Positions 6,563 to 64,000 are shown, counted from the stretch's first letter. The stretch: 64,000 nt of DNA from an uncultured Gammaproteobacteria bacterium (GCA_964483115.1 CAYZZF010000001.1:19907-83906), one strand, 5' to 3'. The notes: a model not told the origin generated them from the sequence alone. Translations and numbers: made by a program.

Positions 6563-7753
6563 ATGTCAAATCTCAAATCTCAAATCTCAAATCTCAAAAC
6601 TTTGGCATCTTTTTATTTGATAACAATTATTGCTTTATTCTTTTATTCTTTTACCCAAGTTGACTTAAATCTTACCTTGTCCAGGTGGTCTGTTTGGCAG
6701 GTAATTGAGAAATTTTTTCAGCATATAGGTTATTTTAACCGGCCACTCTCAACAAGTTTCTTTATTGCAATTATTGCATCGTTGTTTATCTTTTACATGA
6801 TATTTCTTTTCCTTTCTTACAAAAATAAGATTAGTGAAAAACAGGTATGGTATTTAATTATATTAACAGCTGTAATTTTATTATTTTCCTACAATGCATT
6901 TTCTTACGATTTATTCAACTATATCTTTGATGCAAAAATAATAACTTATTACCGTCAAAATCCGTATTTGCATCGTGCCCTTGATTTTCCTGCTGACCCG
7001 ATGCTTTCTTTTATGCGTTGGACGCATAGGTTTTATCCATACGGTCCGGTTTGGCTTGTCTTAACAGTTCCTCTATCGTTTGTTGGGTTTAATCACTTTC
7101 TTCCTACTTTTTTTCTTTTTAAGTTTCTCGGAGTCTTGAGTTTTCTAGGAACAGCCTTTTTTATAGGAAGGATTCTGCGCAAGATTTCTCCAGAAGATAA
7201 AATTTTTGGACTTATTCTTTTTGCATTTAACCCCCTAGTTATTATAGAAGGATTAGTATCGGCACATAATGATATGCCTATGATGTTTTTTGCCATATTG
7301 TCGCTATATCTCTTTTTAGAGAGGAAACATTTTTATTCATTTGTATCACTTCTTTTATCAATTGGGATTAAGTTTGCTACGGCATTTATAATTCCCGTTT
7401 ATGTTTATTTGCTTTTTAAGAGAAGACAAAAAGAGATCAACTGGAACAAAATCTTTATTTCGATAATTTTGCTTATGATTGTACCTATTATTATTGCAAC
7501 AATTAGGACCAATTTCCAACCATGGTATTTACTATATGTTCTGTCATTTACAGCTTTTATCAAAAAAAGTTTCTATGTGATTATTCCAGTTATCGTTTTA
7601 TCCTTTTTTTCTCTTTTAGAATATGTTCCTTTTCTATATCTTGGGAATTGGAATCCGCCGGTGCCGTTTATATTAAATTTGATTATGGTTATCTCAATTA
7701 TCGTCTCGATAGTTTTAATTATCGGCTGGAGATTTAGGCAAAAATATGCTTAA
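6563..7753 (+). CDS. polytopic membrane protein (about 10 TM), putative GT-C/DUF2029-like glycosyltransferase
   Basis: Hydrophobicity pattern. It is coupled 1 nt after the upstream DPM1-like gene. It begins with an in-frame (TCAAATC)x4 tract. Confidence 0.45.
   Translation: MSNLKSQISNLKTLASFYLITIIALFFYSFTQVDLNLTLSRWSVWQVIEKFFQHIGYFNRPLSTSFFIAIIASLFIFYMIFLFLSYKNKISEKQVWYLIILTAVILLFSYNAFSYDLFNYIFDAKIITYYRQNPYLHRALDFPADPMLSFMRWTHRFYPYGPVWLVLTVPLSFVGFNHFLPTFFLFKFLGVLSFLGTAFFIGRILRKISPEDKIFGLILFAFNPLVIIEGLVSAHNDMPMMFFAILSLYLFLERKHFYSFVSLLLSIGIKFATAFIIPVYVYLLFKRRQKEINWNKIFISIILLMIVPIIIATIRTNFQPWYLLYVLSFTAFIKKSFYVIIPVIVLSFFSLLEYVPFLYLGNWNPPVPFILNLIMVISIIVSIVLIIGWRFRQKYA
6566..6600 (+). repeat. (TCAAATC)x4 perfect plus one variant unit, in-frame immediately after the ATG of the CDS at 6563
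   Basis: Read directly: tcaaatc tcaaatc tcaaatc tcaaatc tcaaaac. Encodes SNLKSQISNLKT. Confidence 0.95.
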
Positions 7754-9278: not shown

Positions 9279-9286
9279 AATTTCAT

Positions 9287-11665
9287 ATGTTTTACAAAAA
9301 ACTTAAGGATCTATTCCTTAAGAATAGTTACTGTTTTTTGTTTCTCGTCATTGTCCTTTTTTTCTTCAGACCGGTGTTTATAGGTAAAATTCCTTTTCCA
9401 GGCGATCTTTTGATAAATGAAAACCCATATAAAACATTAGAAAGCTATCCAAATAAAGCCCAAGGAGCGGATGTTATAAAAGAAATATACCCCTGGAGAT
9501 TTTTTTCTATAAATCAAATAAAAAATGGCGATATTCCGTTTTGGAATCCTCATAATTTTTCTGGAAATCCGCAGCTTGCAAATTTTCAAACTGCAATTTT
9601 TTACCCTTTTAATATTTTATATTTCATATTTTCTTTTAATACTGCTTGGACAATTATTATTATGCTTCAGCCATTCTTAGCAGCCATATTTATGTATTTG
9701 TTTTTGTCAAAAGGACTGCTTCTTAAGAAATTCACTTCTTTTATTGGGGGAATTGTTTTTGCTTTTTCATCGTATATGATAGTTTGGCTTGAGTATGGGA
9801 ACATTGGGAGTACTTTATTGTGGCTTCCGCTAGCATTATTATTTACTAAATGGATTTTAGATAAACCATCTATTTTTAATTTTTTGTCATTGACATTTAC
9901 TCTAACTTTCAGCATTCTTGCAGGTTATATACAAGGAGTTTTTTATATTTATGTACTTTGCTTTTTTTACTTTTTATTTTTGTTAGTATTTGAAAGAAAA
10001 AAGAAAATAAAAATACGGAACATATCTATATTTTTAATTAGCATAATATTGCCAATTTTTCTATCGGCGTTCCAGTTTTTACCGACCTACAAATTATTTC
10101 TTAATTCAACAAGAGGAAGTTATTCAATTTCCCAAATATCCAATTTACTTTTACCATCGTTTTATTGGATTACGGCTTTTGCATCTGATTTTTTCGGCAA
10201 CCCAGCAACGCGTAATTATTGGATCAGTGGGACTTATATAGAAAGAGTGATGTATGTTGGTGTACCGATTATTTTTTTTGCTTTCTACGGAGTATCCAAA
10301 TCAAAAATTTTAGAAAAAAGATTTTTTTTAGTCTTGGGCACTTTGTCTTTGATATTAGCAACTAATCTGCCGCTTGTTAAATTTTTCTATCTTATACCTT
10401 TACCTGTAATATCAACCACTGTGCCAACAAGAGAGCTAAGTATTTTTATATTCAGTCTTATCGTCTTATCTTCGATGGGTATAGATTACTGGCTTATTAA
10501 TAAAGAGAATAAGAGCAAAATTTCCATAATTTTTTTGTTAATTTATGTAGCAATTTGGCTTGCAGTAATCATTTTATCCAAGTTAGGACCGGTGAATTAT
10601 CAATATCTGCAAATAACGCGACACAATCTTATTTTACCGAGTTTTTTAGCGATCGCGACGATAATAGTTTTTTACCTTAAAAGAAAAGCAAAAACATTAG
10701 GTTTAATTTTTCTTACTTTAATTGTTATTCTTGATTTGTTATATTTTTTCAATAAAATCACACCATTTTCTCCTACTACTTTTGTTTACCCAAAGACCTC
10801 AGTTGTCTCGTTTTTACAGAAAAATGCTGGGATTAATAGGTTTTGGGGTTATGGATCTGCTTATATTCCCGCTAATTTCCAGACCATTGACGGCACGTAT
10901 TCTCCAGAGGGCAATGATCCATTACATATAGAGTCTTACGGGCAACTTCTTGCTTCATCAGCAAAGGGTACGCTACCAAACGTCTTGCCAAGACCAGATG
11001 CAAATATTGTGCCGGGATTTGGAACTAATGATTTAAAAAATAATTATTACAGACAAAGAATTATTAATCTTTTGGGAGTTAAATATATATTGAATAAAAA
11101 TGATAGTCTTTTGAAAGAATATGTGCCTGACTATGATACCTTTGCGCAAAATTATTATAAGCTAGTTTGGCAGGATTCCCCTTGGCAGATTTATGAAAAT
11201 AAAAATGCTCTTCCAAGGTTTTTTATGACAGGAAGCTATGTTATTATTAAGGATAAAAATTCCGTAATTTCAGCCATTTACAACAAAAATCTTGATTTAC
11301 AAAAAACTTTAATTTTAGAAGAAAAACCATCAATGTCAATAGACGGAGATTCTTTAGGTATCGCAAAACTTTTATCTTATACGCCTAACAAAGTCTCATT
11401 TTCTACAAAAAGTAATGGTAACAGTCTTTTATTTCTATCCGATAATTATTGGGATGAATGGCAGGCACTTATTGACAACAAGCCCGTAAAAACATATATT
11501 GCTGATTATTCTTTTAGAGCAGTTGAGGTGCCTAAAGGCCAGCATACTTTTGTATTTTCTTACAATCCTGCCTCTTTTTTTCTTGGACTTAAAATATCAT
11601 CAATCAGTCTTTTAATTCTAATACTGATACCTTTATGGATAAAAAAATATGGTAAAGAAATATAA
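9287..11665 (+). CDS. yfhO: YfhO-family GT-C membrane glycosyltransferase
   Basis: Signature YPW-x(6-12)-PxWNP-x-xFSG-P-x-AN-x-Q-x-A-x-FYP (IYPWRFFSINQIKNGDIPFWNPHNFSGNPQLANFQTAIFYP). Length 792 aa with a C-terminal extracytoplasmic domain. Confidence 0.75.
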   Translation: MFYKKLKDLFLKNSYCFLFLVIVLFFFRPVFIGKIPFPGDLLINENPYKTLESYPNKAQGADVIKEIYPWRFFSINQIKNGDIPFWNPHNFSGNPQLANFQTAIFYPFNILYFIFSFNTAWTIIIMLQPFLAAIFMYLFLSKGLLLKKFTSFIGGIVFAFSSYMIVWLEYGNIGSTLLWLPLALLFTKWILDKPSIFNFLSLTFTLTFSILAGYIQGVFYIYVLCFFYFLFLLVFERKKKIKIRNISIFLISIILPIFLSAFQFLPTYKLFLNSTRGSYSISQISNLLLPSFYWITAFASDFFGNPATRNYWISGTYIERVMYVGVPIIFFAFYGVSKSKILEKRFFLVLGTLSLILATNLPLVKFFYLIPLPVISTTVPTRELSIFIFSLIVLSSMGIDYWLINKENKSKISIIFLLIYVAIWLAVIILSKLGPVNYQYLQITRHNLILPSFLAIATIIVFYLKRKAKTLGLIFLTLIVILDLLYFFNKITPFSPTTFVYPKTSVVSFLQKNAGINRFWGYGSAYIPANFQTIDGTYSPEGNDPLHIESYGQLLASSAKGTLPNVLPRPDANIVPGFGTNDLKNNYYRQRIINLLGVKYILNKNDSLLKEYVPDYDTFAQNYYKLVWQDSPWQIYENKNALPRFFMTGSYVIIKDKNSVISAIYNKNLDLQKTLILEEKPSMSIDGDSLGIAKLLSYTPNKVSFSTKSNGNSLLFLSDNYWDEWQALIDNKPVKTYIADYSFRAVEVPKGQHTFVFSYNPASFFLGLKISSISLLILILIPLWIKKYGKEI

Positions 11666-13211: not shown

Positions 13212-13226
13212 TCCACCCTTAGGGTG
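13205..13226 (+). promoter_or_regulatory. conserved post-stop motif AAGCTAATCCACCCTTAGGGTG (copy 1), a small hairpin CACCC-tta-GGGTG
   Basis: 15 of 15 nt identical to the copy at 24210-24232. Both copies overlap or follow a stop codon and precede a GT-C gene. Confidence 0.4.
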
Positions 13227-13331: not shown

Positions 13332-15077
13332 ATGAATTTTTTGAAAAAGTATCTAGGACTTCTAGTGGTTATTTTTCTTTCGATACCCTCTATTCTTTCT
13401 CTTTTTCACCCTGGGTTTTTCCCAATGCATGATGATACGCAAGTGGCGAGAGTTTTTGAGATAGGGAAGGCACTAAGAGATGGAATGTTTCCCGTGCGCT
13501 GGGTTGCAGATCTTGGATATGGATATGGTTACCCAATTTTTAATTTTTATGCACCGCTTGCTTATTATTTTGGAGGACTTCTAAGTATTTTAGGGTTTAA
13601 CGCACTTACCTCAACGAAAATTATGATGGGAACAGGAATTCTACTTTCAGGTATTTTTATGTATTTTTTTGCTCAGGAATTGTTTGGGAAGCTTGGAGGA
13701 GTAGTTTCAGGGTTATTTTATGTTTATGCGCCATATCATGCTGTTGATGTTTATGTTAGGGGCGATGTTGCGGAATTCTGGGCATACGCATTTATACCTT
13801 TAATGTTTCTTGGATTCTACAAATTAATCTCAAATCTTCCGCCTCGCAGCCAGACGAGTAAATCTAAAAACTTGAGATGGGTAATTGTTGGAGCGATTGG
13901 ATTTGCGGGAATTGTTCTATCTCATAATTTAACAGCTATGATGATAATACCATTTTTAATAATTATTCTATTATTCTATTGCTTCGTCGCTTTTAGAAAC
14001 AAGAACCTATTTACTATTTACTATTTACTATTTACTATTTTTTTGGGTTTACTTTTGTCTGCCTTTTATTGGTTACCTGCTCTTTTTGAAATGAAATCTA
14101 CAAATGTACTATCTCAAATTGGAGGAGGGGCAAATTTTCGAGATCACTTTGTTTGTTGGCAGCAGCTTTGGAGCTCTCCTTGGGGTTTTGGAGGTTCAAC
14201 CTCAGGGTGTATTGATGGAATATCTTTTATGGTTGGTAAATTATATATACTTATGTCTACAGCCGCAATTGTCTTAGCAACTTCTTTAATAAATAAAAAT
14301 TTAATCAGAAAAAAAGATAATAGCAAGATATTTTTTATTTTATTTTCAATTTTTGGACTGCTCGTTTCAGTATTCTTGACACTTGAAATATCTAAACCTG
14401 TTTGGGAGTTAATTTTCCCTATGGCATTTTTGCAATACCCATGGAGATTTCTTCTATTTACTTCGTTTTTTACTTCAGTTCTTGCCGGAGCGCTTTTCTG
14501 GTTTTTACGAATTTTATTTTATAAGTTTAGGCACTTTAATACTATATATTATTTAAGCGCAGTAATTGTGATCTTAGCTCTTATTTACCTTAACGCAAAA
14601 CTTTTTATACCACAAATAATTATTAACAAAAATAACAATGATTACACAAATAATGTTGCTCTCAAGTGGATCGCCTCAAAAATATCCGATGAGTATATGC
14701 CAAAAAACTTTAATAAACCTAAATCAGAAAACCAGATTGTAAATAACAAAATATTACCCGCAGAATCTAGTGTAAAAATTTTATACGGCGTTCAAGATAC
14801 TAAAAGTTTACAAGCTTTTATCGATGTTCCTAAAGATACAAAAGTTAAGATAAACACCGCCTTTTTTCCCGCATGGACTGCTTTTGTAGATGGTAAAAAA
14901 GCTGAGCTGTATGCAACAAATCAAGGAGTGAACATTTTTATGTCTTCGGGAAAACATACATTTAATATGGAGTTTATAGAAACGCCGATAGAAAAATTGG
15001 CTAATTTTATCTCTCTTACTGGCTTATTTATACTTATTATTGGTATAATTCCTCTAAAGAGAAGCCTATATAAATGA
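13332..15077 (+). CDS. polytopic membrane protein, GT-C-like family A, paralog 2
   Basis: Same N-terminal signature (LFHPGFFPMHDDT...GMFPVRWVADLGYGYGYP). Contains an in-frame (CTATTTA)x4 tract. Confidence 0.5.
   Translation: MNFLKKYLGLLVVIFLSIPSILSLFHPGFFPMHDDTQVARVFEIGKALRDGMFPVRWVADLGYGYGYPIFNFYAPLAYYFGGLLSILGFNALTSTKIMMGTGILLSGIFMYFFAQELFGKLGGVVSGLFYVYAPYHAVDVYVRGDVAEFWAYAFIPLMFLGFYKLISNLPPRSQTSKSKNLRWVIVGAIGFAGIVLSHNLTAMMIIPFLIIILLFYCFVAFRNKNLFTIYYLLFTIFLGLLLSAFYWLPALFEMKSTNVLSQIGGGANFRDHFVCWQQLWSSPWGFGGSTSGCIDGISFMVGKLYILMSTAAIVLATSLINKNLIRKKDNSKIFFILFSIFGLLVSVFLTLEISKPVWELIFPMAFLQYPWRFLLFTSFFTSVLAGALFWFLRILFYKFRHFNTIYYLSAVIVILALIYLNAKLFIPQIIINKNNNDYTNNVALKWIASKISDEYMPKNFNKPKSENQIVNNKILPAESSVKILYGVQDTKSLQAFIDVPKDTKVKINTAFFPAWTAFVDGKKAELYATNQGVNIFMSSGKHTFNMEFIETPIEKLANFISLTGLFILIIGIIPLKRSLYK
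14007..14041 (+). repeat. (CTATTTA)x4 perfect plus one variant unit, in-frame in the family-A gene at 13332
   Basis: Read directly: ctattta x4 then ctatttt. Encodes LFTIYYLLFTIF. Confidence 0.95.
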
Positions 15078-20514: not shown

Positions 20515-22854
20515 ATGTTTAAAAATTTTATTTTGAGGTTTTGGCCGGTTATTTTTATTTTTTTAATCTGGTTTATTTTTTCAAGTCCTTATTTTCTTAA
20601 AAATAGAGTCCCGTTCGCTTCGACTTATCAAGTTAATTTTTTTCCTCCTTGGAGCGCTTACCCCCAGTTTGCGGGTCCGGTTAAAAATAATGCAATGCCT
20701 GATGTTATTACTCAAATTTACCCATGGAAGCATTTTACAATAGAAACTTATAAACAAGGCCATATCCCTCTTTGGAATCCCTATAGTTTTTCAGGAACCC
20801 CACATCTTGCAAATTATCAGTCAGCAGTACTTTCCTCATTTAATTTATTGTTTTTTATAATGCCTTTTGTTGATGCATGGAGCATTCTTGTCCTTCTTCA
20901 ACCTCTTTTAGCTGGTATTTTTATGTATTTATTTACCAGAAGTCTTGAGAGGAGTAAATTTGCAAGCCTTATCGCATCTATCTCGTTTATGTTTTCTGGA
21001 TTTATTACTGTTTGGATGGGTTATGCGACTTTAGGATACGCCATTTTATTTTTACCTCTTTGCCTTTTTGCAATAGAAAAATATTATAAGACAGCCAAGT
21101 TCAAGTTCTTAATTCTACTTTCTATAACTATTCCCCTATCTTTCTTCAGCGGTCATTTCCAAATTAGCTTATATTTTTTAGCGACAATCTTTATTTACGT
21201 TATTTATAAATTTATCACTACTAAAAATATACATAATACTTTATATGTAATACTTTATACTTTTTTTGGTCTGCTTTTGGCAATGCCGCAGCTACTCCCA
21301 TCAATAGAGTTCTATTCTCAATCATTCAGAAGTAAATTATTCCAGATACAAGAAGCAATTCCTTGGCAATATATCCCAACATTTTTAGCTCCTGATTTTT
21401 TCGGCAACCCTGTTACTAGAAATGATTGGTTCGGACATTATGCCGAATGGAATGGTTATATAGGAGTTTTACCTATAATGCTTGCTTTTTATAGTATTTT
21501 AGGTAAAAAAAAAGTTCAAACACTTTTTTTATTCATTTTTGGCATTATCACCATTTTTTTGGCGTTTAATACACCCTTATTAAATCTTATCATAAATCTT
21601 CATATACCTGTTTTATCTACCAGTGCCGCAAGCAGAATTATAGTTATCTATAGTTTTCTTTTTACTACCTTGTCAGCTTTTGGGTTTGATCAACTTATTA
21701 AAGATATAAAATATGGAAATTTGAAGAAAATCATTATTTGGTTTGTTGCATTTTTATTAGTTTTTATAGTTTTATGGGCGATAGTTATTTTAAAATTATT
21801 TATACCGGCCGAACGAATTATCGTTGCTAGACAAAATCTTATTCTACCAACACTTATTTTTCTTGTTTCTTATTTCTTAATTTTTATCGGAGTTGTTTTT
21901 AGAAGATACAGTAAAAACTCCCTTTTTATATTGTCACTTTCTATAATTTTAATTTTTGTCGTTTCTTTTGATATGCTCAGATTTACGTTAAAATGGCAAG
22001 CTTTCGACCCTAAAAATTTAGTTTTTCCTGATGTTAAAACTACTAGGGAATTCTCTAAAATTTTAGGATACGAACGAGTGTTAGGCAATCTTGAAGGAGA
22101 AGATACTGTTTATTATAGCATTCCCTCTGTTGATGGATACGATGCTTTGTACATTAAAAGATATGGTGAATTTATAGCTTCGCTTGACAATGGAAAAATT
22201 AAAGAATCTTACCGTTCTGTAGTCGCTTTTCCAAAAAATGGTATATATACCCCAAAAGCAATTAACCTTTTAGGAATTAAATATATTATCCATAAGGTAG
22301 CCGATAATAATAAAGCTTGGGCTTTCCCGTTTGGGTCTTATCCAAAGGGAAACTTTAATCTTATTTATGATGACGGCAGGTATCAAATTTTTGAAAACAA
22401 AACTGTTTTTCCCCGCGTGTTTTTAGTAGGCGAGTATAAAGTTATTACAGACCCTCAAAAGATTATTGATACAATGTTTAGTGATAATTTTAATTTAAAG
22501 AAAGAAATTGTCTTAGAAAAAGACCCGGGTATTAAGAAAACAAAACAAGATATAGGCAGTGCAAATATTACCAATTACAGTCCAGATCAAATAGATATTG
22601 ATGTTGCCGTAAATAATCAAGGGCTGCTTTTTTTGTCTGATAGCTATTACAGAGACTGGAAAGCCGAGATTGATGGGGTAGATACACCGATTTATAGAGC
22701 TGATTATACTTTTAGAGCAATTAAGGTTCCTTCAGGAAAGCACATAATTAGATTTATTTATGACCCAAAGAGTTTTAGATTAGGAATCTATCTAGCAGTT
22801 TTGGGGATAATTCTTATTTTAGTACTAGTACCTAGGCATGATCCCAAAATTTAA
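20515..22854 (+). CDS. yfhO: YfhO-family GT-C membrane glycosyltransferase (paralog)
   Basis: QIYPWKHFTIETYKQGHIPLWNPYSFSGTPHLANYQSAVLS. Confidence 0.75.
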   Translation: MFKNFILRFWPVIFIFLIWFIFSSPYFLKNRVPFASTYQVNFFPPWSAYPQFAGPVKNNAMPDVITQIYPWKHFTIETYKQGHIPLWNPYSFSGTPHLANYQSAVLSSFNLLFFIMPFVDAWSILVLLQPLLAGIFMYLFTRSLERSKFASLIASISFMFSGFITVWMGYATLGYAILFLPLCLFAIEKYYKTAKFKFLILLSITIPLSFFSGHFQISLYFLATIFIYVIYKFITTKNIHNTLYVILYTFFGLLLAMPQLLPSIEFYSQSFRSKLFQIQEAIPWQYIPTFLAPDFFGNPVTRNDWFGHYAEWNGYIGVLPIMLAFYSILGKKKVQTLFLFIFGIITIFLAFNTPLLNLIINLHIPVLSTSAASRIIVIYSFLFTTLSAFGFDQLIKDIKYGNLKKIIIWFVAFLLVFIVLWAIVILKLFIPAERIIVARQNLILPTLIFLVSYFLIFIGVVFRRYSKNSLFILSLSIILIFVVSFDMLRFTLKWQAFDPKNLVFPDVKTTREFSKILGYERVLGNLEGEDTVYYSIPSVDGYDALYIKRYGEFIASLDNGKIKESYRSVVAFPKNGIYTPKAINLLGIKYIIHKVADNNKAWAFPFGSYPKGNFNLIYDDGRYQIFENKTVFPRVFLVGEYKVITDPQKIIDTMFSDNFNLKKEIVLEKDPGIKKTKQDIGSANITNYSPDQIDIDVAVNNQGLLFLSDSYYRDWKAEIDGVDTPIYRADYTFRAIKVPSGKHIIRFIYDPKSFRLGIYLAVLGIILILVLVPRHDPKI

Positions 22855-24233: not shown

Positions 24234-26558
24234 TTGGTAGTTATGAAGAAAAAATTACCGTATTTTTTAATTATAACAATTTCTATTTTATTTTTCTGGC
24301 AATTTATCTTTAAGGAGTTCTTACCTATTCCTTCGGACACCATTGTTGGACTTTATCATCCTTTTCGTGACTTTTACGCAAAAGATTATCCAAGAGGCAT
24401 TCCGTTTAAGAATTATTTAATTACAGATCCCGTAAGAGAACAGTATCCGTGGAGATATTTAACCATTAATATTGAAAAAAAAATTAATTTGCCGTTATGG
24501 AATCCATATAATTTTGCAGGAACACCGCTTCTTGCCAATTATCAATCTGGCGCATTTTATCCCTTAAATATACTGTTCTTCTTTATGTCATTTTATAAAG
24601 CATGGAGTATTCTTATATTTTTTGAGCCTCTTTTGGCAGGATTTTTTTTGTATCTCTATCTTGATAATTTAAGATTAAATAAATGGGCAAGCTTTTTTGG
24701 ATCGTTATCCTTGATGTTTTCTGGTTTTTTTGTTGCCTGGATGGAATGGGGAACTGTAATTAATACCGTACTGTGGTTGCCACTTATATTGCTATCGATA
24801 GATAAAATATTTAAAAATCAACAGATCTTAAATTTAAAATCTCAGATCTCAAAACTACAACTTAAATCTCAAAATCTAATAACTTGGAGTTTAATTTTCA
24901 TTTTTTCAATTAGTTCTTCTTTTTTGGCTGGGCATCTTCAAATTTTCTTTTACCTTTTTATTGTCACAACGCTATATATTCTTGCTCGGTGGTTGCAGCT
25001 ACAACAAAGAAATTCAAAATTTTTACTTATATTCTTAGTTTCTTATATTTTATTTTTTATATTGACTTCAATTCAATGGATTCCAACTTTTCAATTTATC
25101 CTTCGTTCAGCGCGAAATGTTGATCAGCTACCTTTCCAGAATTCTGGATGGTTTATTCCTTGGCAAAACCTTATTCAGTTTATTGCCCCTGATTTTTTTG
25201 GAAACCCTACGACTCTTAATTATTGGGGAATTTGGAACTATGGGGAATTCGTTGGCTATATAGGTATCTTACCTATTATTATGGCTCTATTTTCTTTATT
25301 TTTTCGTCATGATAGAAAAACTTTGTTTTTTGGAAGTATATTTTTTCTGTCTCTTATCTTTTCTCTTCCGACGATCTTTGCGAATCTTCCATTTTTACTT
25401 CAAATCCCCTTTATTGATACTGCACAGCCGACCAGACTCTTATTTATAACAGATTTTTCTCTTGCCGTTCTTGCGGCTTTTGGTTTTGATTATTTTCTAA
25501 GGACAAAAAGCAAAAAAGAGATCTTATATCCTTTAGGTTTTATAGCAATCTTTTTTTCACTTTTATGGGTCTTTGTTCTATTTGGAGTTTATATAACAAG
25601 GCTGGTTTCGCAAGAGAATTTATTTGTTGCAAAACACAATCTCATTTTACCTACAAGTATATTTTTGATGCTAAGCCTATTTATTTTCATATTGTCGTTT
25701 CTTAAAAAGCTCAGTAAAAATGTCATTCTAATAGTGTATATTATCATAGTGGGCTTGACTGTTTTCGATTTATTGAGATTTAGTTTTAAGTTTACCCCAT
25801 TTATAAAAAGACAATATCTTTTTCCAACTACAAAGACGCTTTCTTTTCTTGAAAAACAAAAAGGGAATTTTAGGATTATGACAACAGACTCAAAAATCCT
25901 GCCGCCCAATTTTTCTATTATGTACAATTTACAAAGTATTGATGGTTACGATCCTTTATATCTTAAAAGATATGCAGAACTTATTGCCGCATTAGAGAGA
26001 GGACGGCCCGATATAGCTCCACCTTTTGGATTTAACAGAATTATTACGCCGCATAATTATTCATCAAAAATTATAGATCTTTTAGGAGTGAAATATATAT
26101 TAAGTCTTTCTGATATTTCCTCAAGTAGCCTTGTTAAAATTTTTCAAGAAGGTCAGACAAAAGTCTATAAAAATTTAAACGCTTTACCCCGGTCATTCTT
26201 CGTTAATCAAGTTAGGTTAACAAAGAATAAGAATGAAACAATAGAAGAAATGTTTAGAAAAGATTTTGATCCGTTAGAAACAGCAATAGTCGAAAATTTC
26301 CAAAGTGTCCTATCTATTCCATTTCTAGGGTGGAATAGGGGGAAGGCAGAAATTACTAATTATTCTGAAAATGAAATTATAATTAGAACAGAAAATAAAG
26401 GTGAAGGGTTCTTGGTTTTAGTTGATAGTTATTATCCTACATGGCATGCATTTATCGATGGAAAAGAGACAAAAATTTTTTTAACTGACTATAATTTTAG
26501 AGGCATAATTGTTCCAGAAGGGAAACATCAGGTTGTTTTTTATAATTCATTATTATGA
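24234..26558 (+). CDS. yfhO: YfhO-family GT-C membrane glycosyltransferase (paralog)
   Basis: EQYPWRYLT...LPLWNPYNFAGTPLLANYQSGAFYP. TTG start at 24234, or ATG at 24243. Contains a degenerate heptamer tract. Confidence 0.7.
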   Translation: MVVMKKKLPYFLIITISILFFWQFIFKEFLPIPSDTIVGLYHPFRDFYAKDYPRGIPFKNYLITDPVREQYPWRYLTINIEKKINLPLWNPYNFAGTPLLANYQSGAFYPLNILFFFMSFYKAWSILIFFEPLLAGFFLYLYLDNLRLNKWASFFGSLSLMFSGFFVAWMEWGTVINTVLWLPLILLSIDKIFKNQQILNLKSQISKLQLKSQNLITWSLIFIFSISSSFLAGHLQIFFYLFIVTTLYILARWLQLQQRNSKFLLIFLVSYILFFILTSIQWIPTFQFILRSARNVDQLPFQNSGWFIPWQNLIQFIAPDFFGNPTTLNYWGIWNYGEFVGYIGILPIIMALFSLFFRHDRKTLFFGSIFFLSLIFSLPTIFANLPFLLQIPFIDTAQPTRLLFITDFSLAVLAAFGFDYFLRTKSKKEILYPLGFIAIFFSLLWVFVLFGVYITRLVSQENLFVAKHNLILPTSIFLMLSLFIFILSFLKKLSKNVILIVYIIIVGLTVFDLLRFSFKFTPFIKRQYLFPTTKTLSFLEKQKGNFRIMTTDSKILPPNFSIMYNLQSIDGYDPLYLKRYAELIAALERGRPDIAPPFGFNRIITPHNYSSKIIDLLGVKYILSLSDISSSSLVKIFQEGQTKVYKNLNALPRSFFVNQVRLTKNKNETIEEMFRKDFDPLETAIVENFQSVLSIPFLGWNRGKAEITNYSENEIIIRTENKGEGFLVLVDSYYPTWHAFIDGKETKIFLTDYNFRGIIVPEGKHQVVFYNSLL
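24827..24878 (+). repeat. degenerate 7-nt periodic tract (cttaaat ttaaaat ctcagat ctcaaaa ctacaac ttaaatc tcaaaat) in the YfhO gene at 24234
   Basis: Read directly: 7-nt periodicity of [ct]t[ca]aaat-like units. Encodes LNLKSQISKLQLKSQN. Confidence 0.7.
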
Positions 26559-27502
26559 ACGTAAGCATTATTATTCCAAATTATAATGGAGAAAAGCTTT
26601 TAAAGAAAAATTTGCCGGAGGTTTTTAAAGCAGCAGTTAATTATAAAAATGGGGAAGTAGAAATTATTTTTGTTGACGATGGCTCCATTGATAAAAGTAC
26701 AACTTTTATCAAATCTCAAATCTCAAAACTCAAGACTCAAAACTTCGAATTGAAACTTCTTAAAAACCAGAAAAATCTTGGGTTTTCATCGACGGTAAAT
26801 CATGGGGCAAGAGAAGCAAAAGGAGATATTTTGGTTTTGCTGAATACAGATGTTATTCCGGAGAAAAATTTCCTGGAGCCATTGATAGAGCATTTTAAAG
26901 ATAATGATGTATTTGCGGTTGGGTGCATGGATAAAAGTGTTGAGGACAATCAAGTCATTTTAAGAGGTAGAGGTATTGGAAAATGGCAAAGAGGATTTTT
27001 GGTTCATGAAAGGGGGGAGGTTAATAAAAACAATACTCTTTGGGTAAGTGGCGGGAGCGGAGCTTTTAGAAAATCAATTTGGGATAAGCTTTCTGGGCTT
27101 AATGAGCTTTATAATCCATTTTACTACGAAGATATTGATTTATCCTACAGGGCTCTTAAGTCAGGATATAAATTATTGTTTGAACCCGACAGCGTAGCTT
27201 TGCACGAACATCAAAAAGGTATAATAAGAAGAAAATATTCAAACTTTAAAGTAAAGACAATTGCATATAAAAATCAATTTATTTTTGTTTGGGAGAATGC
27301 TACAGATATTGATATTCAATTTTTACATTTTTTATGGTTACCATACCATTTTATTAAGGCTGTTATAAGATTAGATTGGGCCTTTTTTCTTGGTTTTTTT
27401 GAAGCTTTTATTTTACTGCCGAAGGTTATAAAATTTAGTTTTAAGGCGCAAAAATTATTTATTAAATCAGATAAGGAAGTGGTGAAAGAATTTGAAAAAT
27501 GA
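26555..27502 (+). CDS. GT2 glycosyltransferase
   Basis: VSIIIPNYNGEKLL, FVDDGSIDKS and LLNTDVIPE. Has a heptamer tract inserted between DDGS and the NLGFS motif. Confidence 0.7.
   Translation: MNVSIIIPNYNGEKLLKKNLPEVFKAAVNYKNGEVEIIFVDDGSIDKSTTFIKSQISKLKTQNFELKLLKNQKNLGFSSTVNHGAREAKGDILVLLNTDVIPEKNFLEPLIEHFKDNDVFAVGCMDKSVEDNQVILRGRGIGKWQRGFLVHERGEVNKNNTLWVSGGSGAFRKSIWDKLSGLNELYNPFYYEDIDLSYRALKSGYKLLFEPDSVALHEHQKGIIRRKYSNFKVKTIAYKNQFIFVWENATDIDIQFLHFLWLPYHFIKAVIRLDWAFFLGFFEAFILLPKVIKFSFKAQKLFIKSDKEVVKEFEK
26709..26743 (+). repeat. (TCAAATC)x2 plus three variant units, in-frame in the GT2 gene at 26555
   Basis: tcaaatc tcaaatc tcaaaac tcaagac tcaaaac. Confidence 0.85.
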
Positions 27503-28215
27503 AATTATCAATTATAATGCCTGTTTTTAATGAGGAGAAAACAATACGAGATATTCTTGGAAAAGTGGTTGCTGTAGATATCCAAGGTGTTAGCAAAGAA
27601 ATTATTGTTGTTGATGACGGATCGACTGATGCTAGCGCATCTCAAATCTCAAATCTCAAATCTCAAAACTTAAATTTTAAATTTATACAACATAAAAAAA
27701 ATATGGGGAAAGGAGCAGCTGTTAGGGCAGGAATTGAAAATTCGACAGGGGATTATATCATAATTCAAGATGCGGATTTGGAATATGAGCCAAATGATAT
27801 AAAAAAACTTATTGCGCCAGTTCAAAAGGGCCAAGCACAGGTTGTATATGGGACAAGACTTAATCGCCTGCCGAATTTTACAAGAGATGAGAGAACCTTT
27901 CTTTTTCTGCTGCACTATCTTGGTAACAGATTCTTAAGTCTTGTAACAAGCATTTTATACAGACAGTGGATTACCGATATGGAAACCTGCTATAAACTTT
28001 TTCCCAAAAAAGCTTTAGAGAAAGTAAAACTTAATTCTAGAAGATTTGATTTTGAACCGGAAATCACTTCTAAGTTACTTAAGAAAGAGTATAAAATTTT
28101 AGAAGTACCAATCGTAACTAAACCTAGGGGATACGATGAAGGGAAAAAACTTCACACAATAAGGGATGGATCTATAGCTTTATGGACATTAATAAAATAC
28201 AGATTTATCGATTAA
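27499..28215 (+). CDS. GT2 polyprenyl-phosphate sugar synthase (DPM1/GtrB-like)
   Basis: LSIIMPVFNEE, VVDDGSTDAS and IQDADLEYEP. Has an (ATCTCAA)x4 tract after DDGSTDAS. Confidence 0.7.
   Translation: MKLSIIMPVFNEEKTIRDILGKVVAVDIQGVSKEIIVVDDGSTDASASQISNLKSQNLNFKFIQHKKNMGKGAAVRAGIENSTGDYIIIQDADLEYEPNDIKKLIAPVQKGQAQVVYGTRLNRLPNFTRDERTFLFLLHYLGNRFLSLVTSILYRQWITDMETCYKLFPKKALEKVKLNSRRFDFEPEITSKLLKKEYKILEVPIVTKPRGYDEGKKLHTIRDGSIALWTLIKYRFID
27639..27685 (+). repeat. (ATCTCAA)x4 perfect plus degenerate units, in-frame in the GT2 gene at 27499
   Basis: atctcaa x4 then aacttaa attttaa. Encodes SQISNLKSQNLNFK. Confidence 0.95.
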
Positions 28216-42562: not shown

Positions 42563-43552
42563 ATGAGAATTTTACTTACCGGCGGCGCAGGATATATTGG
42601 TAGTTTTGTGGTAAAAAGACTTCTTGAAAAAGGAGACGAGGTTATAGTTTTGGATAGTCTTGAGAGAGGAGAGGAAAGAAATATAGACAAAAGGGCAATT
42701 TTTATAAAGGCAAATCTGTGGGATCGAGACAAGTTGGAGGACGCGTTTAGAAAATACAATTTCGAAGCAGTAATGCATTTTGCAGGCTTAATTTCTATGG
42801 AAGAGTCTATGGAAAATCCTGGAATCTATTTCTATAACAATACAGGAGGGTCACTAGAATTAATTGAACATGCAACTAAAAATAATGTAAAATATTTTAT
42901 TTTCTCTTCAACTGCTGGTGTTTACGGAAATCCAATAAAAACCCCAATCCCAGAAGATCATCCTACAAACCCCACAAATCCCTATGGAGAAAGCAAGCTT
43001 ATGGTTGAAAAAATCCTTCCCTGGTATAACAGAATTTATGGATTAAATTTTATAAGCCTTCGATATTTTAATGCTGCAGGAGCATCTTTAGATGGTTCAA
43101 TGGGGGAAGGTCATGATCCTGAAACACATATAATTCCTTTGGCAATAAAAGCAGCTTTAGAAAATAAAGAATTTACACTTTATGGCGATAACTATAATAC
43201 AAAAGATGGGACATGCATTAGAGATTATATACATGTAATAGACCTTGTAGAATTTCATATATTAGCTCTTGAAAAATTAAAGAAAGAGCAAGGAGGTTTC
43301 TTTTATAATGTCGGAACAGGACAAGGTTATTCTAATAGAGAAGTTATTGAAATGATAAAAAAAGTTTCAGGTATTGGGTTAAAAGTTAAAATTGCCGCAA
43401 GAAGACCTGGGGATGCAGAAGTATTAATTGCTGATCCAACAAAGATTAAAAATGAACTTGGCTTTAACCCCAGATATTCAGATTTAGAAACGATAATTAA
43501 AACTGCATGGAAATGGTACAAAAATAGTTCAAACCTCAAAATTGAAAATTAA
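42563..43552 (+). CDS. galE: UDP-glucose 4-epimerase
   Basis: MRILLTGGAGYIGS Rossmann N-terminus, a YxxxK element (YGESK) and an extended-SDR fold throughout. Confidence 0.85.
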   Translation: MRILLTGGAGYIGSFVVKRLLEKGDEVIVLDSLERGEERNIDKRAIFIKANLWDRDKLEDAFRKYNFEAVMHFAGLISMEESMENPGIYFYNNTGGSLELIEHATKNNVKYFIFSSTAGVYGNPIKTPIPEDHPTNPTNPYGESKLMVEKILPWYNRIYGLNFISLRYFNAAGASLDGSMGEGHDPETHIIPLAIKAALENKEFTLYGDNYNTKDGTCIRDYIHVIDLVEFHILALEKLKKEQGGFFYNVGTGQGYSNREVIEMIKKVSGIGLKVKIAARRPGDAEVLIADPTKIKNELGFNPRYSDLETIIKTAWKWYKNSSNLKIEN

Positions 43553-43862
43553 AAATGAGACATTATTATTAAACAAGCTAATTCTACGAGATATGTTTTT
43601 CAAACATATCTTAAGAGTATATGGTTATATTATTAACATAGTATATTTTTTTGGTTGGTATGCTATTGTAGATAATAGGCCCTCATTGTTAGAGCCTACA
43701 AAAAATGGGTTAATTAAACTGACTGTTTTAAGAGGGAAATATAATATCGAAGTTAAATTTGTAAAAACTCCTGTCAGAAAATTTTCAGATACGGTTTCTT
43801 TATTATCATTCTTAATACTTTTAATAATTCTTGTAAAAGCTGTATATTTAAAACAGGTATGA
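43542..43862 (+). pseudogene. orphan C-terminal fragment of a family-A GT-C membrane protein
   Basis: YFFGWYAIVDNRPSLLEPTKNGLIKLTVLRGKYNIEVKFVKTPVRKF...LLIILVKAVYLKQV aligns with the last 90 aa of the CDS at 11649 (YFPGWKSTIDGNPSNIEYTNDRGVIDLSVPKGEHKIKLKFSETPLRLL...ITLKAVYIHRV). The upstream 450 aa are absent. Confidence 0.45.
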
Positions 43863-44917
43863 ATATAGCAATAGATATCTCGCCCCTTAAGAGCGGACAT
43901 TTTTTACAACACAGAGTTAGAGGAACAGGTTTTTATATAGATAATTTAAAAAGATCATTAATGAAATATTTTCCAGACAATAAATACACTTTTTTTACTC
44001 GAGGAGAAAAACTGTCCAAAGATATAGACTTAGTTCACTATCCTTATTTTGAGCCATTTTTTTTGACACTTCCTCTAGTTAAAAATCGCAAATCAGCTAT
44101 TACAATTCATGATTTGACTCCTCTTGTTTTTTCAAATGCTTTTCCAAGAGGAATAAGAGGAGAAATTAAATGGCAAATTCAAAAAAAACTTTTGGAAAGA
44201 GCAGATGTAATTATTACAGATTCAGAATGTTCAAAAAAAGACATTACTAGGTATACTGGTATACCTGACAAAAAAATTAATGTCGTTTATCTTGCAGCAG
44301 GAGAACAGTTTAAAAGAATCAAGAATCAAGAATCAAGAATCAGGGATCTGAAAACAAAATATGGATTGCCTGAAAGGTTCGTACTCTATGTAGGCGATGT
44401 TACCTGGAATAAAAATCTGCCAAGGCTGATCGAAGCGATAAAAAAGATTAATGCTACTTTGGTTATGACTGGCAGGACTTTAGCAAGTAAAGATTTTGAC
44501 CGCAATAATCCTTGGAACCAAGATCTAGTTCGGGTTCAAGAATTGGCAAAAGACGATAAAAGAATTATCCGCTTGGATTTTGTTCCGACAGGAGATTTAG
44601 TCTTTCTCTACAATATGGCCACTGTCTTTGCAATGCCCAGCTTATATGAGGGGTTTGGCTTGCCGATTCTCGAGGCTATGAGCTGCGGTTGCCCTGTTGT
44701 AACATCAAAAGAGGGTTCTTTGGAAGAAATTGCAAAAGATGCAGCTTTTTATGTAGATGCATATAATGTCGAAAGCATTGCAAAAGGGATTAAACAATTA
44801 TTTGCAAGCGACAGCCTGAGAAGAGAATTTTCAAAAAAAGGACTGGAACAGGCGAAAAAATTTTCATGGAAAAAAACAGCAGAAGATACTTTAAAAGTAT
44901 ATAAGAAAGTATTGTAA
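43859..44917 (+). CDS. GT4 (GT-B fold) glycosyltransferase
   Basis: EGFGLPILEAMSCGCPVVTSKEGSLEEI. Carries an (AAGAATC)x4 tract. Confidence 0.7.
   Translation: MNIAIDISPLKSGHFLQHRVRGTGFYIDNLKRSLMKYFPDNKYTFFTRGEKLSKDIDLVHYPYFEPFFLTLPLVKNRKSAITIHDLTPLVFSNAFPRGIRGEIKWQIQKKLLERADVIITDSECSKKDITRYTGIPDKKINVVYLAAGEQFKRIKNQESRIRDLKTKYGLPERFVLYVGDVTWNKNLPRLIEAIKKINATLVMTGRTLASKDFDRNNPWNQDLVRVQELAKDDKRIIRLDFVPTGDLVFLYNMATVFAMPSLYEGFGLPILEAMSCGCPVVTSKEGSLEEIAKDAAFYVDAYNVESIAKGIKQLFASDSLRREFSKKGLEQAKKFSWKKTAEDTLKVYKKVL
44314..44341 (+). repeat. (AAGAATC)x4 perfect, in-frame in the GT4 gene at 43859
   Basis: aagaatc x4. Encodes KNQESRIRD. Confidence 0.95.
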
Positions 44918-62131: not shown

Positions 62132-64000
62132 ATTATTTCTATTTGTATTTATTTTATTAACGCTAACAGTTTTTAAAAATTGGTTTTTTTTAAATCCCCT
62201 TTCTTCGGGTGACTGGAGTTATAACTTCAGCGAGTCTATAAAAACTTTTACAATTTTTCCTTACTCTTGGTTTTTTAACTTAAATGCAGGACTTGGGGGC
62301 ACAAGCCTTTTTATTTTGTCTTTGAGTTCTTATTTTTTATTTACAACATCTTTTTTGTTTAATTTTTTCAAAATTCCCTGGGTTTTAATAGAAAGATTGG
62401 TCTGGTTTTGGCCGTTTTTATTAATTTCTGCTTTCTCCTCTTATTTTTTGTTTAAAAAATTATTTTCTGAAAAGTTCGCATTACTCTCATCTTTTATTTT
62501 TCTTTTTAACTCCTACATCTTAATGATCGTCGGAGGCGGGCAAATGGGTGTAGCATTTGCTTATGCCATGGCTCCGCTAGTTTTATATGTTTTTATTAAA
62601 ACCATTGATTTTTTTAATTTTTCAAAAAATAATATTCAATTTTCAATTTTCAATTTTCAATTACCTTTACTTTCAGGGTTATTATTTTCAATTCTGGTTT
62701 TGTTTGATTTAAGGATTGCGTATATATGCATAACTTCCGTAATGCTGTATTTGGTATTAAATATAAAGTATAAAGTATCAAAAAATAACTTTTTGCGTAT
62801 CTTAAATTTAATTTCTTATTCTTTGATAATTCCGGCGGTAATTACATTTCTTTTGAATTCTTTTTGGATAATTCCGTTGATAGCAGGCGGGAAAAATCCA
62901 CTTGTAGAACTAGGCAGTGTTTACAGCTCTTTAGAGTCGGTTAAATTTTTCAGTTTTGCTAAATTTGAGAATTCTATCGGACTTCTGCATCCAAATTGGC
63001 CGGAGAATATTTTCGGAAAAGTCGGTTTTATGAGACCTGAGTTTCTATTTCTACCAGTACTTGCTTATGCAAGTCTGTTTTTTGCAGCAAAGATTAAAGA
63101 TTCAAGATTAAAGACTTATGTTATTTATTTTGCGTTATTAGGGTTAATCGGAGCTTTTTTGGCAAAAGGGGTAAACGAACCTTTTGGCAGAATATACCTT
63201 TGGCTTTTTAATCATTTCACGGGATTTGTGATGTTTAGGGACCCGACTAAGTGGTACACGCTAGTTGCAGTTTCATATTCAGTTTTAATTCCATTCACTG
63301 TATGGAAGTCTTATGAGTGGTTGAAGTCGCAATCAAAATTTCAAATCTCAAATTTCAAATTTCAAATAAGGTCCAAATCTCAAATTCTCAATTTTCAAAA
63401 CTTATTTTTTTTGCTTGTTACCGGTTACTTGTTGTTCTTAATTAGACCGGCATTTTTTGGTCAATTAACAGGCACATTTAAGCCCCATGAAATTCCAAAG
63501 GATTATATAAGGCTTGAAGAATTTTTAAGCAGTAAAAAAGACTTCTTCAGAATCCTTTGGGTTCCAGAGTGGCAGCGGTTCGGTTTTTTTTCCAATAACC
63601 ACCCGGCAATAGGAGGAGGGGAGATTTTTAAGAAAGATGCAGAAAATCAGATAAAACAGCTTAAACAAAAAGGTACAGAAGGCTTGCTTGAAGATCTGTC
63701 AGTCAAGTATATTATTATTCCTTATGATTCGGAGAAAGAGATATTTCTAAGAGACAGAAAGTATGATGATAAATTGTATGAGAAGAGCATAACTGAAACT
63801 AGGAAAATTAAATGGCTCAGGGAGATTGACGGCTTTGGAAAAATCAAAGTTTTTGAAGTCCCAAATCCCAAAGATCATTTTTGGAGCCCCTCGACTAACC
63901 TTCAAGTTAAATACAGGTATGTTAATCCGACGAAATATGAAGTTTATGTAAAAAATGCAAAAAAGGGAGACTTATTAGTATTCTCGGAGGGTTTTGATAA
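62115..64000 (+). CDS. polytopic GT-C-like membrane protein, 3' end outside the window
   Basis: The frame is open from a GTG at 62115 (VKNYFKLFLFVFILL...) to the window edge (more than 628 codons, no stop) and is not in the ORF track. It has multiple TM helices followed by a hydrophilic C-terminal region, and carries two degenerate heptamer tracts. Confidence 0.5.
   Translation, partial: MKNYFKLFLFVFILLTLTVFKNWFFLNPLSSGDWSYNFSESIKTFTIFPYSWFFNLNAGLGGTSLFILSLSSYFLFTTSFLFNFFKIPWVLIERLVWFWPFLLISAFSSYFLFKKLFSEKFALLSSFIFLFNSYILMIVGGGQMGVAFAYAMAPLVLYVFIKTIDFFNFSKNNIQFSIFNFQLPLLSGLLFSILVLFDLRIAYICITSVMLYLVLNIKYKVSKNNFLRILNLISYSLIIPAVITFLLNSFWIIPLIAGGKNPLVELGSVYSSLESVKFFSFAKFENSIGLLHPNWPENIFGKVGFMRPEFLFLPVLAYASLFFAAKIKDSRLKTYVIYFALLGLIGAFLAKGVNEPFGRIYLWLFNHFTGFVMFRDPTKWYTLVAVSYSVLIPFTVWKSYEWLKSQSKFQISNFKFQIRSKSQILNFQNLFFLLVTGYLLFLIRPAFFGQLTGTFKPHEIPKDYIRLEEFLSSKKDFFRILWVPEWQRFGFFSNNHPAIGGGEIFKKDAENQIKQLKQKGTEGLLEDLSVKYIIIPYDSEKEIFLRDRKYDDKLYEKSITETRKIKWLREIDGFGKIKVFEVPNPKDHFWSPSTNLQVKYRYVNPTKYEVYVKNAKKGDLLVFSEGFD
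62636..62663 (+). repeat. (TCAATTT)x3 plus one variant unit, in-frame in the terminal GT-C-like gene
   Basis: tcaattt tcaattt tcaattt tcaatta. Confidence 0.9.
63341..63400 (+). repeat. degenerate (TCAAAT[C/T])n tract (tcaaatc tcaaatt tcaaatt tcaaata ... aaatctc aaattct caatttt) in the terminal GT-C-like gene
   Basis: Read directly. Encodes KFQISNFKFQIRSKSQILNFQN. Confidence 0.8.

Follow-up and report, generated by a model that had tools for sequence, protein, structure and literature searches.

In-frame heptanucleotide arrays in glycosylation genes of Levybacteria: probable mutational on/off switches

Introduction

In host-adapted bacteria with classical contingency loci, a single genome has many loci in the OFF state. 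Haemophilus influenzae has phase-variable tetra- and heptanucleotide tracts, the heptanucleotide ones of 6-38 units (PMC2651432), and Campylobacter jejuni has poly-G tracts in the glycosyltransferase genes of its capsule and lipooligosaccharide (PMC8437040). In Helicobacter canadensis, homopolymeric tracts drive a switching of C-terminal sequences (PMC2823697). I consider here a stretch of 64,000 nucleotides (the window; GCA_964483115.1, CAYZZF010000001.1:19907-83906) in which tandem arrays of a seven-nucleotide unit lie in frame within genes of surface glycosylation. The arrays are probably mutational on/off switches. Strains of related species that differ by one or two units support the view that slippage-prone repeats make ON and OFF alleles of single genes; adaptive phase variation is plausible but unproven.

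Cyanobacteria, too, carry arrays with a unit of exactly seven nucleotides, the short tandemly repeated repetitive sequences (STRRs), and units such as CCCCAGT, TTGGTCA and CAACAGT were reportedly described by Mazel and colleagues in 1990 and by Elhai and colleagues in 2008. STRRs belong to a few fixed unit families and are mostly intergenic. Their heptamers have been used for fingerprinting (PMC5088731). Like the arrays considered here, they are tandem runs of a few to about ten copies, found at many loci and restricted in lineage. The arrays here differ in having dozens of units (more than 40 across the loci surveyed below) and in lying mostly inside open reading frames (ORFs), in frame: 308 of 350, or about 88%. 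Within the Candidate Phyla Radiation (CPR), a Gracilibacterium has a gene for an extracellular protein with a hypervariable 9-mer repeat encoding PTD (PMC6851277). This too is a slippage-prone, perfect coding repeat, but its 9-nt unit keeps the frame and varies the number of tripeptides at a single locus, with no ON/OFF effect. When the literature was searched for phase variation or simple sequence repeats (SSRs) in CPR or Patescibacteria, nothing came up beyond that paper, and no description of heptamer switching in glycan genes; a sequence-only reading of the window had likewise known of none for such organisms.

The contingency loci of H. influenzae and C. jejuni share several features with the arrays considered here. 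All have within the ORF a unit whose length is not a multiple of three, a frameshift when the number of units changes, hosts that make surface glycans, many independent loci, a unit length characteristic of the species, and natural frameshifted alleles. The arrays here stand apart in being quantised in steps of three units, in often lying in the middle or at the C-terminal end of the gene, in occupying sites kept phylum-wide, and in being almost always ON in consensus assemblies; and their host is an uncultured, ultra-small CPR bacterium rather than a pathogen. Arrays at the C-terminal ends of epimerase genes recall H. canadensis in altering only the tail and the stop/start overlap with the next gene, and not the core of the enzyme. 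They differ from its homopolymers in being heptamers, and between close strains no variant at the epimerase site was seen.

Heptanucleotide arrays in the window

The window was scanned for period-7 arrays with Tandem Repeats Finder (TRF) and directly. It holds seven perfect tracts, of 28-34 nt and 4.0-4.9 units, and about 13 degenerate arrays (Table 1). The eleven coordinates that the sequence-only reading had put forward all hold 7-periodic sequence. Its six perfect tracts are perfect, though not of exactly four units, and they have a seventh companion: the tract at 62636, taken for degenerate, is a perfect one. TRF adds about a dozen degenerate arrays that had been passed over, including those at 9608, 21228, 21859, 35839, 37528, 41650, 43538, 62754 and 63089. 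Perfect tracts of at least three units with a period of 5, 6 or 8-12 are absent from the window. When codons were shuffled within ORFs (500 shuffles), matched runs of at least 21 were expected 0.00 times and observed 7 times, and runs of at least 10 were expected 0.22 times and observed 14 times, so the claim of a density far beyond chance holds. A search of the window for tRNA genes and Rfam families gave no matches.

Every array lies in frame in an ORF on the + strand, at least 11 ORFs carrying them, and the host genes are thus all currently ON, as had been said. A unit of 7 nt, not divisible by three, inside an ORF is one of the marks of an SSR contingency locus. It has a further consequence. 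Since 7 and 3 have no common factor, a stretch of three units (21 nt) yields a single 7-residue peptide in any frame; the repeat passes through all seven cyclic codons, and the peptide is fixed up to rotation (TCAAATC gives SNLKSQI and CTATTTG gives LFAICYL). For the same reason a unit is tolerable in a gene only if it contains no cyclic stop codon. Direct reading of the sequence shows the units to be free of cyclic stops on the coding strand, which is not true of their reverse complements. Each array is a direct repeat, 25-50 nt long, that lacks inverted symmetry, a different thing from the palindromic elements of Rickettsia (RPE), which are about 100 bp or more and sit in frame at many loci.

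Unit loss and frameshift between near-identical strains

Evidence that the arrays are unstable comes from relatives of the window organism. The P0134 protein cluster (90% identity) contains a Roizmanbacteria-type GT39 protein of 562 aa, from 16 contigs, and also proteins of 145 and 380 aa, both encoded on a single ENA contig of 133,881 bp (L083). Compared with L084 and 15 other contigs (L085, L086 and L090 among them), L083 has no mismatch in 20,438 nt and one gap of 14 nt. Two CAATTTT units are missing there from the site-1 array of the GT39 gene; the array shrinks from 33 to 19 nt, and the frameshift splits the gene into parts of 145 and 380 aa. ON alleles of this locus were assembled from sister samples with neighbouring ENA accession numbers (ERZ27254754, -756, -846), and in the ERZ272547xx series the ON alleles of L087-L089 come from samples other than that of the OFF allele. 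A second case is found in the P0280 cluster, a Levybacteria GT39, where L178 (ERZ27293412) and L008 differ in 14,054 nt by one single-nucleotide polymorphism (SNP), a loss of 7 nt and a loss of 14 nt. The 7-nt loss in L178 falls in a site-1 (GAAATTG) array and splits the gene into 129 and 435 aa; the 14-nt loss falls in a (GAAAACA) array after the ATG of the next paralogue, where the gene call drops from 512 to 456 aa. Two related species therefore provide, at tracts orthologous or paralogous to those of the window, both a difference in repeat number between near-identical strains and a change between in-frame and out-of-frame, two further marks of a contingency locus. The unit-number variants foreseen by the sequence-only reading exist in these relatives; the window organism is represented by two Logan assemblies, both identical to the window.

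At 19 and 18 nt, two of the short alleles fall below the smallest k-mer of the assembler, and the k-mers that span flank, array and flank are missing from the long alleles. Since those k-mers cannot come from the long alleles, the short ones are not artefacts of the assembly graph. The change from 39 to 25 nt in the GAAAACA array of L178 is less secure on the k-mer argument alone. In both strain pairs (L083/L084 and L178/L008) tract changes equal or outnumber point changes, and a rough tally sets 3 tract events, out of about 10 tracts compared, beside some 20 SNPs in 52 kb. Among the cluster members of 8 window proteins and 21 homologue clusters, most show no length variants, and OFF alleles occur in two clusters only.

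Another split GT39 gene (L066, 6990-7010), turned up by a tblastn screen for changes of frame, was set aside: its 1-nt frameshift lies beside a run of five T, outside any heptamer tract. This paralogue may be either a true pseudogene or a product of misassembly.

Period and length across the lineage

The homologues of window proteins are named Candidatus Levybacteria or Levyibacteriota, and the window genome is that of a Levybacteria, within the CPR; the window belongs to an NCBI contig of 143 kb. The description "ultra-small AT-rich genome" is fair, given a complete genome of the lineage of 762,565 bp (L016; CP066685.1) and a G+C content of 32.7% in the window. A census took in loci around GT39 homologues, 80 from GTDB species representatives (1.37 Mb) and 80 from JGI and ENA metagenomes (0.93 Mb). 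A metagenome scan with P0134 brought one identical contig and diverse species, and was used for the census, not for allele frequencies.

Perfect tracts of at least three units number 46 at period 7 in the GTDB set, against 3, 0 and 1 at periods 5, 6 and 8 and none at periods 9-15; in the JGI/ENA set there are 61, against 1, 1 and 1 and a total of 1. Matched run length, which by chance is independent of period, gives the same picture. In 2.38 Mb, 116 runs of at least 14 have period 7, and no other period within 4-13 has more than 3. Period 7 is about 40 times as frequent as any other period that is not one of its multiples; periods 14 and 21, which also show an excess, are such multiples. TRF finds the 350 period-7 arrays in about 2.3 Mb. 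The heptanucleotide-array trait is common to Levybacteria and Roizmanbacteria (Microgenomates, CPR).

The hosts are nearly all of one kind. Of 88 host proteins, about 85 belong to glycosylation families, with PMT_2/GT39 (45) and GT2 (18) ahead of epimerase (8), PTPS_related (6), YfhO (5) and GT4 (3), so the association with surface genes expected of contingency loci is present in the loci surveyed.

Lengths, too, are constrained. The histogram of perfect runs is bimodal, with its second mode at 31-34 nt, and the TRF copy numbers of coding arrays are commonest at 4.5-5.0, sparse between 6 and 7.5 and slightly raised again at 7.5-8.0. Such a pattern is to be expected if the frame survives only steps of three units (21 nt, 7 aa), which would leave intact genes with about 1.5, 4.5 or 7.5 units. 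The impression that all tracts have four units is thus the work of the reading frame. The longest perfect tracts in related loci, 62 and 44 nt, lie outside ORFs.

Also outside ORFs are the longest heptamer arrays that were found, of 6.3-9.9 units (L075 89-157, 1822-1865 and 1904-1958; L059 976-1037). Those at L075 1822-1958 stand directly upstream of a GT39 gene and could serve as promoter-spacing repeats.

Turnover at orthologous sites

Arrays recur at fixed orthologous sites, uniform inside each array and built of different units in different species. Quantisation of length is clearest at the junction between the C-terminus of the epimerase gene and the ATG of the next gene. In a comparison of about 70 species, the site is mostly either the one-unit form AATTCAAAATGA, which is common, or (AATTCAA)4AATGA, found in precisely this form in six; degenerate four-unit forms occur in others, the window among them. 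L006 and L010, which are 85% identical, differ at this junction by exactly 21 nt. The units of the epimerase tail include, from species to species, AATTCAA, AAGTTAA, CTCAAAA, CAAATAC, AAAAATG, AAAGTGA and AATTTAA. At the N-terminus of the MptA_B-like protein the window has TCAAATC and L173 has (TCAAATT)n, with one or two imperfect units in L172, L174 and L176. Site 1 of GT39 (aa 115-140) has no insert in many homologues and otherwise arrays of AAATTGG, CAATTTT or AAACTCA type or unrelated inserts; at site 2 the units are AAATATC, AAATTTC and AGTATTC. The GT2 loop (aa 100-115) shows AGCCATC, AATTGGA, AAATCCG, ATATCAA and TCTCAAT, and after it the sequence is highly conserved. Arrays that are alike within and unlike between suggest repeated expansion and contraction, a form of concerted evolution.

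In some lineages the epimerase junction has 9-nt tandem arrays (AAGTTNNTA, 4-5 copies) in place of heptamers (L039, about 16,520-16,570; L126, about 11,415-11,450; L051, about 16,240-16,290). At a gene end, L008 (9913-9930) and L106 differ by one copy of a 9-nt tandem unit (TTAAACTTA).

Density outside the glycosylation island

The flanks of all fetched loci consist of glycosylation genes, and host and non-host ORF families (Pfam) look alike; housekeeping motifs were absent from the fetched GT39 loci. For this reason the comparison was made with the neighbourhoods of the Lon protease gene, which adjoin the island, in seven genomes (106.7 kb of non-glycan DNA). They contain one period-7 tract of at least 17 nt, an intergenic one of 18 nt, against 9.3 expected at island density (P ~1e-3). 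The idea that the arrays are confined to envelope-glycan genes is upheld, within the neighbourhoods of the island in these seven genomes, as a density about ninefold lower in adjacent non-glycan DNA.

The Lon gene lies 1-9 kb upstream of the first GT2/MptA_B-like pair of the island in 7 of 7 Levybacteria genomes (L170, L172-L177; window 1-6561), and in several of these the first island genes come in a similar order: GT2, MptA_B-like, PMT_2, YfhO, PTPS_related. Inserts of 7 and 14 aa in Lon were considered as heptamer arrays in a housekeeping gene and rejected, being GC-rich and palindromic. In some Levybacteria these in-frame inserts (AMPAGRQ; AMPAARLPGGQGRQ) are encoded by a GC-rich palindrome (GCCTGCCGCCCGCCTGCCGGGCGGACAGGGCAGGCAGGGC; L175, about 11,670-11,720; proteins P0182, P0184, P0186, P0188 and P0273). 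Peptides resembling RLRSGQA, FDFAQGK and SSSEAGRAE occur within the site-1 inserts of GT39 in other species (P0007, P0028, P0051, P0075). Taken together, the Lon and GT39 inserts suggest small GC-rich hairpin elements that insert in frame.

Host genes and island context

From 3.4 kb on, the window is devoted to the machinery of envelope glycans, a glycosylation island of at least 58 kb. The Pfam families that carry arrays are GT87/MptA_B-like, YfhO, GT2, PMT/PMT_2 (GT39), GT4 and NAD-dependent sugar epimerase; other island genes encode polysaccharide deacetylases, flippases, RmlC/RmlD-like enzymes and an AftD-like GT-C. The region from 46 to 62 kb (nucleotide-sugar and GT4 genes) and two PMT_2 genes on the - strand have no period-7 arrays, and for that reason the association in the window is mainly with GT-C and GT2 enzymes. 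Two pairs of adjacent paralogues have an array at one aligned position, the GT2 genes 26555/27499 (arrays 26709 and 27639) and the GT39 genes 36299/38023 (arrays 36664 and 38362), and the earlier statement that the tracts were not inherited through paralogy is to that extent only partly right.

Table 1. Period-7 arrays in the window, with perfect tracts and host genes (loop placement from alignments and Pfam coordinates)
Array	Coordinates	Strand	Perfect tract	Host gene and remarks
(TCAAATC)x5.3	6562..6598	+	6566-6598, 33 nt, TCAAATC	Directly after ATG of GT87/MptA_B-like GT-C gene 6563-7753; encodes MSNLKSQISNLK
Degenerate (TTTTATA)x3.6	9608..9632	+		YfhO gene 9287-11665
Perfect (CTATTTA)x4.9	14007..14040	+	14007-14040, 34 nt, CTATTTA	Membrane protein 13332-15077, no Pfam match; encodes hydrophobic LFTIYYLLFTIF
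Degenerate (TATACTT)x5.1	21228..21263	+		YfhO gene 20515-22854
Degenerate (TTTCTTA)x4.1	21859..21887	+		YfhO gene 20515-22854
Degenerate TCAAATC-type (TRF period 21)	24809..24853	+		YfhO gene 24234-26558; within a stretch of ~20 aa missing from paralogue 20515
(TCAAAWC)x5.1	26709..26744	+		GT2 gene 26555-27502, aa 52-64; position homologous to 27639
(ATCTCAA)x5.3	27639..27675	+	27639-27667, 29 nt, ATCTCAA	GT2 gene 27499-28215, aa 47-59
Degenerate (ATTTTTA)x9	35839..35902	+		PMT gene 34617-36302
Degenerate (AAAACTC)x7.6	36664..36715	+		GT39 gene 36299-38026, site 1; loop hypervariable in family
(AATTTTA)x5.3	37528..37564	+		GT39 gene 36299-38026, site 2
Perfect (CTATTTG)x4.9	37574..37607	+	37574-37607, 34 nt, CTATTTG	GT39 gene 36299-38026, site 3, hydrophobic, probably transmembrane segment; no length variation among homologues, perfect arrays also in L013, L015, L082, L134
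(AAACTCA)x7.4	38362..38412	+	38362-38392, 31 nt, AAACTCA	GT39 paralogue 38023-39714, site 1
Degenerate (TGACTTA)x3.7	41650..41675	+		GT2 gene 41352-42179, hypervariable loop aa 100-115
Degenerate 4-unit array	43520..43556	+		C-terminal tail of epimerase gene 42563-43552; ends in ATGA (43555-43558), the stop/start-overlap form of relatives, start at that ATG unconfirmed in the window
Perfect (AAGAATC)x4.1	44314..44342	+	44314-44342, 29 nt, AAGAATC	GT4 gene 43859-44917, between two Rossmann halves
(AATTTTC)x4.6	62631..62662	+	62635-62662, 28 nt, TTCAATT	Polytopic membrane ORF, 62115 to window end, no Pfam hit
(AAAGATT)x3.7	63089..63114	+		ORF from 62115, running off window end
(AAATTTC)x4.6	63336..63367	+		ORF from 62115, running off window end; encodes KFQISNFKFQI

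Discussion

I propose that the arrays are slippage-prone heptanucleotide repeats that create, and in principle reverse, null alleles of single glycosylation genes, in the manner of phase variation. This seems to me moderately probable. The proposal starts from what was observed: the specificity for period 7, in-frame quantisation, occurrence throughout the lineage, uniform units that differ between species, frameshift alleles lacking one or two units, and depletion in nearby DNA. The arrays would sit where extra residues are tolerated, at the N-terminus, in the C-terminal tail, in surface loops and in one hydrophobic segment. Gain or loss of one or two units would shift the frame and give a null allele, and further slippage would restore the gene. 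With many paralogous GT-C, GT2 and GT4 enzymes, each with its own array, the outcome would be combinatorial variation of the surface glycan. Slipped-strand mispairing is the presumed process; it would have to be reversible and fast enough, its adaptive value would lie in evasion of phage or host, and the window organism would be expected to behave like its relatives. By analogy, the mechanism would be that of classical repeat-based contingency loci, and what is new would be the short quantised arrays, their positions, their phylum-wide sites, their near-universal ON state and the organism.

A number of observations weigh against this proposal. The arrays have only 4-5 units, against 6-38 for the heptamers of H. 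influenzae, and show no bias toward the 5' end of genes. Only 1 of 207 census tracts of at least 18 nt is out of frame in consensus assemblies (that of L083), and with the two of L178 the known OFF events come to three in all, a mixture of ON and OFF far poorer than in classical systems. All three are contractions; expansion or reversion was not seen among them. L008 and L106 differ by 19 SNPs and have all four tract lengths alike; neither that pair nor the other strain pairs 0.1-1% apart (L027/L131, L151/L162, L064/L147) show any tract change, and 19 other 90%-identity clusters are without length variants. At sites 2 and 3 of GT39, moreover, a repeat-type peptide (ISNIKYQISNIQIKY; KLFxICYLLFAIFNF) is kept in position and length across the family, so the arrays there are old and constrained in length. 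The combinatorial ON/OFF switching of glycans claimed for the window is therefore supported in part, by losses of units that frameshift genes in related species, and is weakened by the rarity of OFF states and the shortness of the arrays.

An alternative view, less probable though deserving of serious attention, is that the arrays are a by-product. Some quirk of repair or replication in the lineage would make heptamer duplications everywhere, and they would survive only in redundant, fast-evolving glycosylation paralogues; a third added unit would restore the frame, leaving a 7-aa low-complexity insert in a loop, and OFF alleles would be ordinary pseudogenes made at mutational hot spots. This fits the near absence of out-of-frame arrays, the great rarity of OFF alleles, the position of arrays in loops, termini and indel hot spots of proteins, and the usual agreement of tract lengths between close strains. 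Birth and decay would predict many degenerate arrays, and there are 350 TRF arrays in related loci for about 70 perfect ones of at least 28 nt. Heptamer arrays in unrelated GC-rich viral contigs, mostly intergenic, hint that the origin is a general mutational one. The scarcity of tracts in neighbouring non-glycan DNA suits both views alike, since it would also follow from purifying selection against frameshifted intermediates in essential genes. It is harder on this view to understand how uniform arrays persist at orthologous sites in proteins 55-70% identical, which calls for continuing turnover or selection, or why tract changes match or exceed point changes in two strain pairs, a sign of high mutability. 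Furthermore, OFF alleles reach consensus frequency in natural samples and so are not strongly deleterious. That OFF states are rare, arrays short and not biased toward the 5' end speaks for a by-product over switching; uniform arrays at fixed sites over deep divergence, together with OFF alleles at consensus frequency, speak for switching over a by-product.

Might the protein be what is selected? The periodic peptides (SNLKSQI, NIKYQIS, KLEIGNW, LFAICYL) would then extend amphipathic or transmembrane helices, the DNA repeat being merely the easiest route to them. A step of 21 nt would add two helical turns, and the conserved peptides of GT39 sites 2 and 3 are just what this idea would lead one to expect; at those two sites only, the observation that the sequence-only reading had named as pointing to structure, conservation of the peptide inserts in homologues, is in part made, and at most sites the encoded peptides are not conserved. 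I think the idea improbable all the same. Selection on peptides cannot account for perfect identity at synonymous positions within arrays. In the epimerase tail, the loop of GT2, GT39 site 1 and the N-terminus of MptA_B, homologues either lack an insert or carry peptides that are unrelated, and an array of 10-12 residues makes only about 1.5 heptads, from identical DNA units, unlike a coiled coil, in which several heptads would be conserved in the protein while the DNA diverges. Still a little less probable is the spread of a copied cassette, a mobile unit of about 30 nt or ectopic gene conversion carrying arrays between genes. The tracts at 6566 and 27639 do share an identical 30-mer that includes their exit, TCAAAACTT, the array at 26709 ends likewise, and the arrays at 14007 and 37574 both consist of (CTATTTR)4 followed by CTATTTT. 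But more than 40 units across loci is too many for a cassette; array ends blend into local sequence, orthologues have one-unit precursors at the same sites, inverted repeats and target duplications are absent, and 26709 and 27639 occupy paralogous positions. That the arrays arise by chance or from assembly is scarcely credible. Logan contigs do end inside tracts of TCAAATC and AAACTCA type, but shuffles give no such tracts, the same tracts appear in independent NCBI, Logan, JGI and ENA assemblies, the short alleles cannot be built from long-allele k-mers, and the 30-mer in common with 6566 accounts for the contig break at 27642.

The Logan contigs, assembled at k=31, end exactly in the tracts at 6566, 27639 and 38362 (L001, L002, L170, L171), and as a result Logan lacks the proteins whose genes contain tracts 6566 and 38362. 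Population heterogeneity was considered as a cause of these ends and rejected, the break at 27642 being due, at k=31, to the shared 30-mer of 6566-6598 and 27639-27672, which is TCAAATCTCAAATCTCAAATCTCAAAACTT; for the break at 38390, no repeat within the window accounts for it.

The switching proposal can be carried further, though at this length it becomes speculative and I hold it only tentatively. Microgenomates may keep dozens of arrays over phylum-level time at fixed sites in GT-C, GT2 and GT4 genes, at about 4.5 units, perhaps the shortest length that still slips, and uniform through turnover, as a combinatorial ON/OFF generator of cell-surface glycans in organisms that live on other cells and under pressure from phage. 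The 7-nt period might then reflect a heptamer-specific mechanism shared with cyanobacterial STRRs and with the arrays of GC-rich phage contigs. Most CPR bacteria are believed to be symbionts attached to surfaces, and the large glycosylation islands they carry rank with the least understood of their features. If the proposal is true, this would be the first phase-variation system described in the radiation, with a bearing on strain-level surface diversity, on recognition by phage and host, and on the fragmentation of island assemblies. An exclusive 7-nt period with quantisation in three-unit steps would in addition offer a natural system in which to study the birth and upkeep of microsatellites in coding sequence.

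Other repeats

In GC-rich viral contigs of IMG/VR (58-70% G+C), AT-rich (TCAAATC)n arrays, about 4-6 units long, take up the spacers that separate a stop codon from the following ATG (L195 208-250, 2389-2430 and 2865-2895; also L184, L186, L212, L217 and L219). These contigs have several other period-7 arrays and almost none of other periods. One of them (L219) has TTGGTCA in 3.6 copies, which I take to be the cyanobacterial STRR2 unit. Heptamer tandem arrays may thus be more widespread than recognised, and in viral contigs their placement gives them the look of intergenic or translation-initiation elements.

Other genes of the island have two-copy arrays of period 21 or 24, as called by TRF, at 15056-15096, 30112-30172, 31649-31703, 50203-50242 and 52724-52770; one of them lies in a PMT_2 gene on the - strand.

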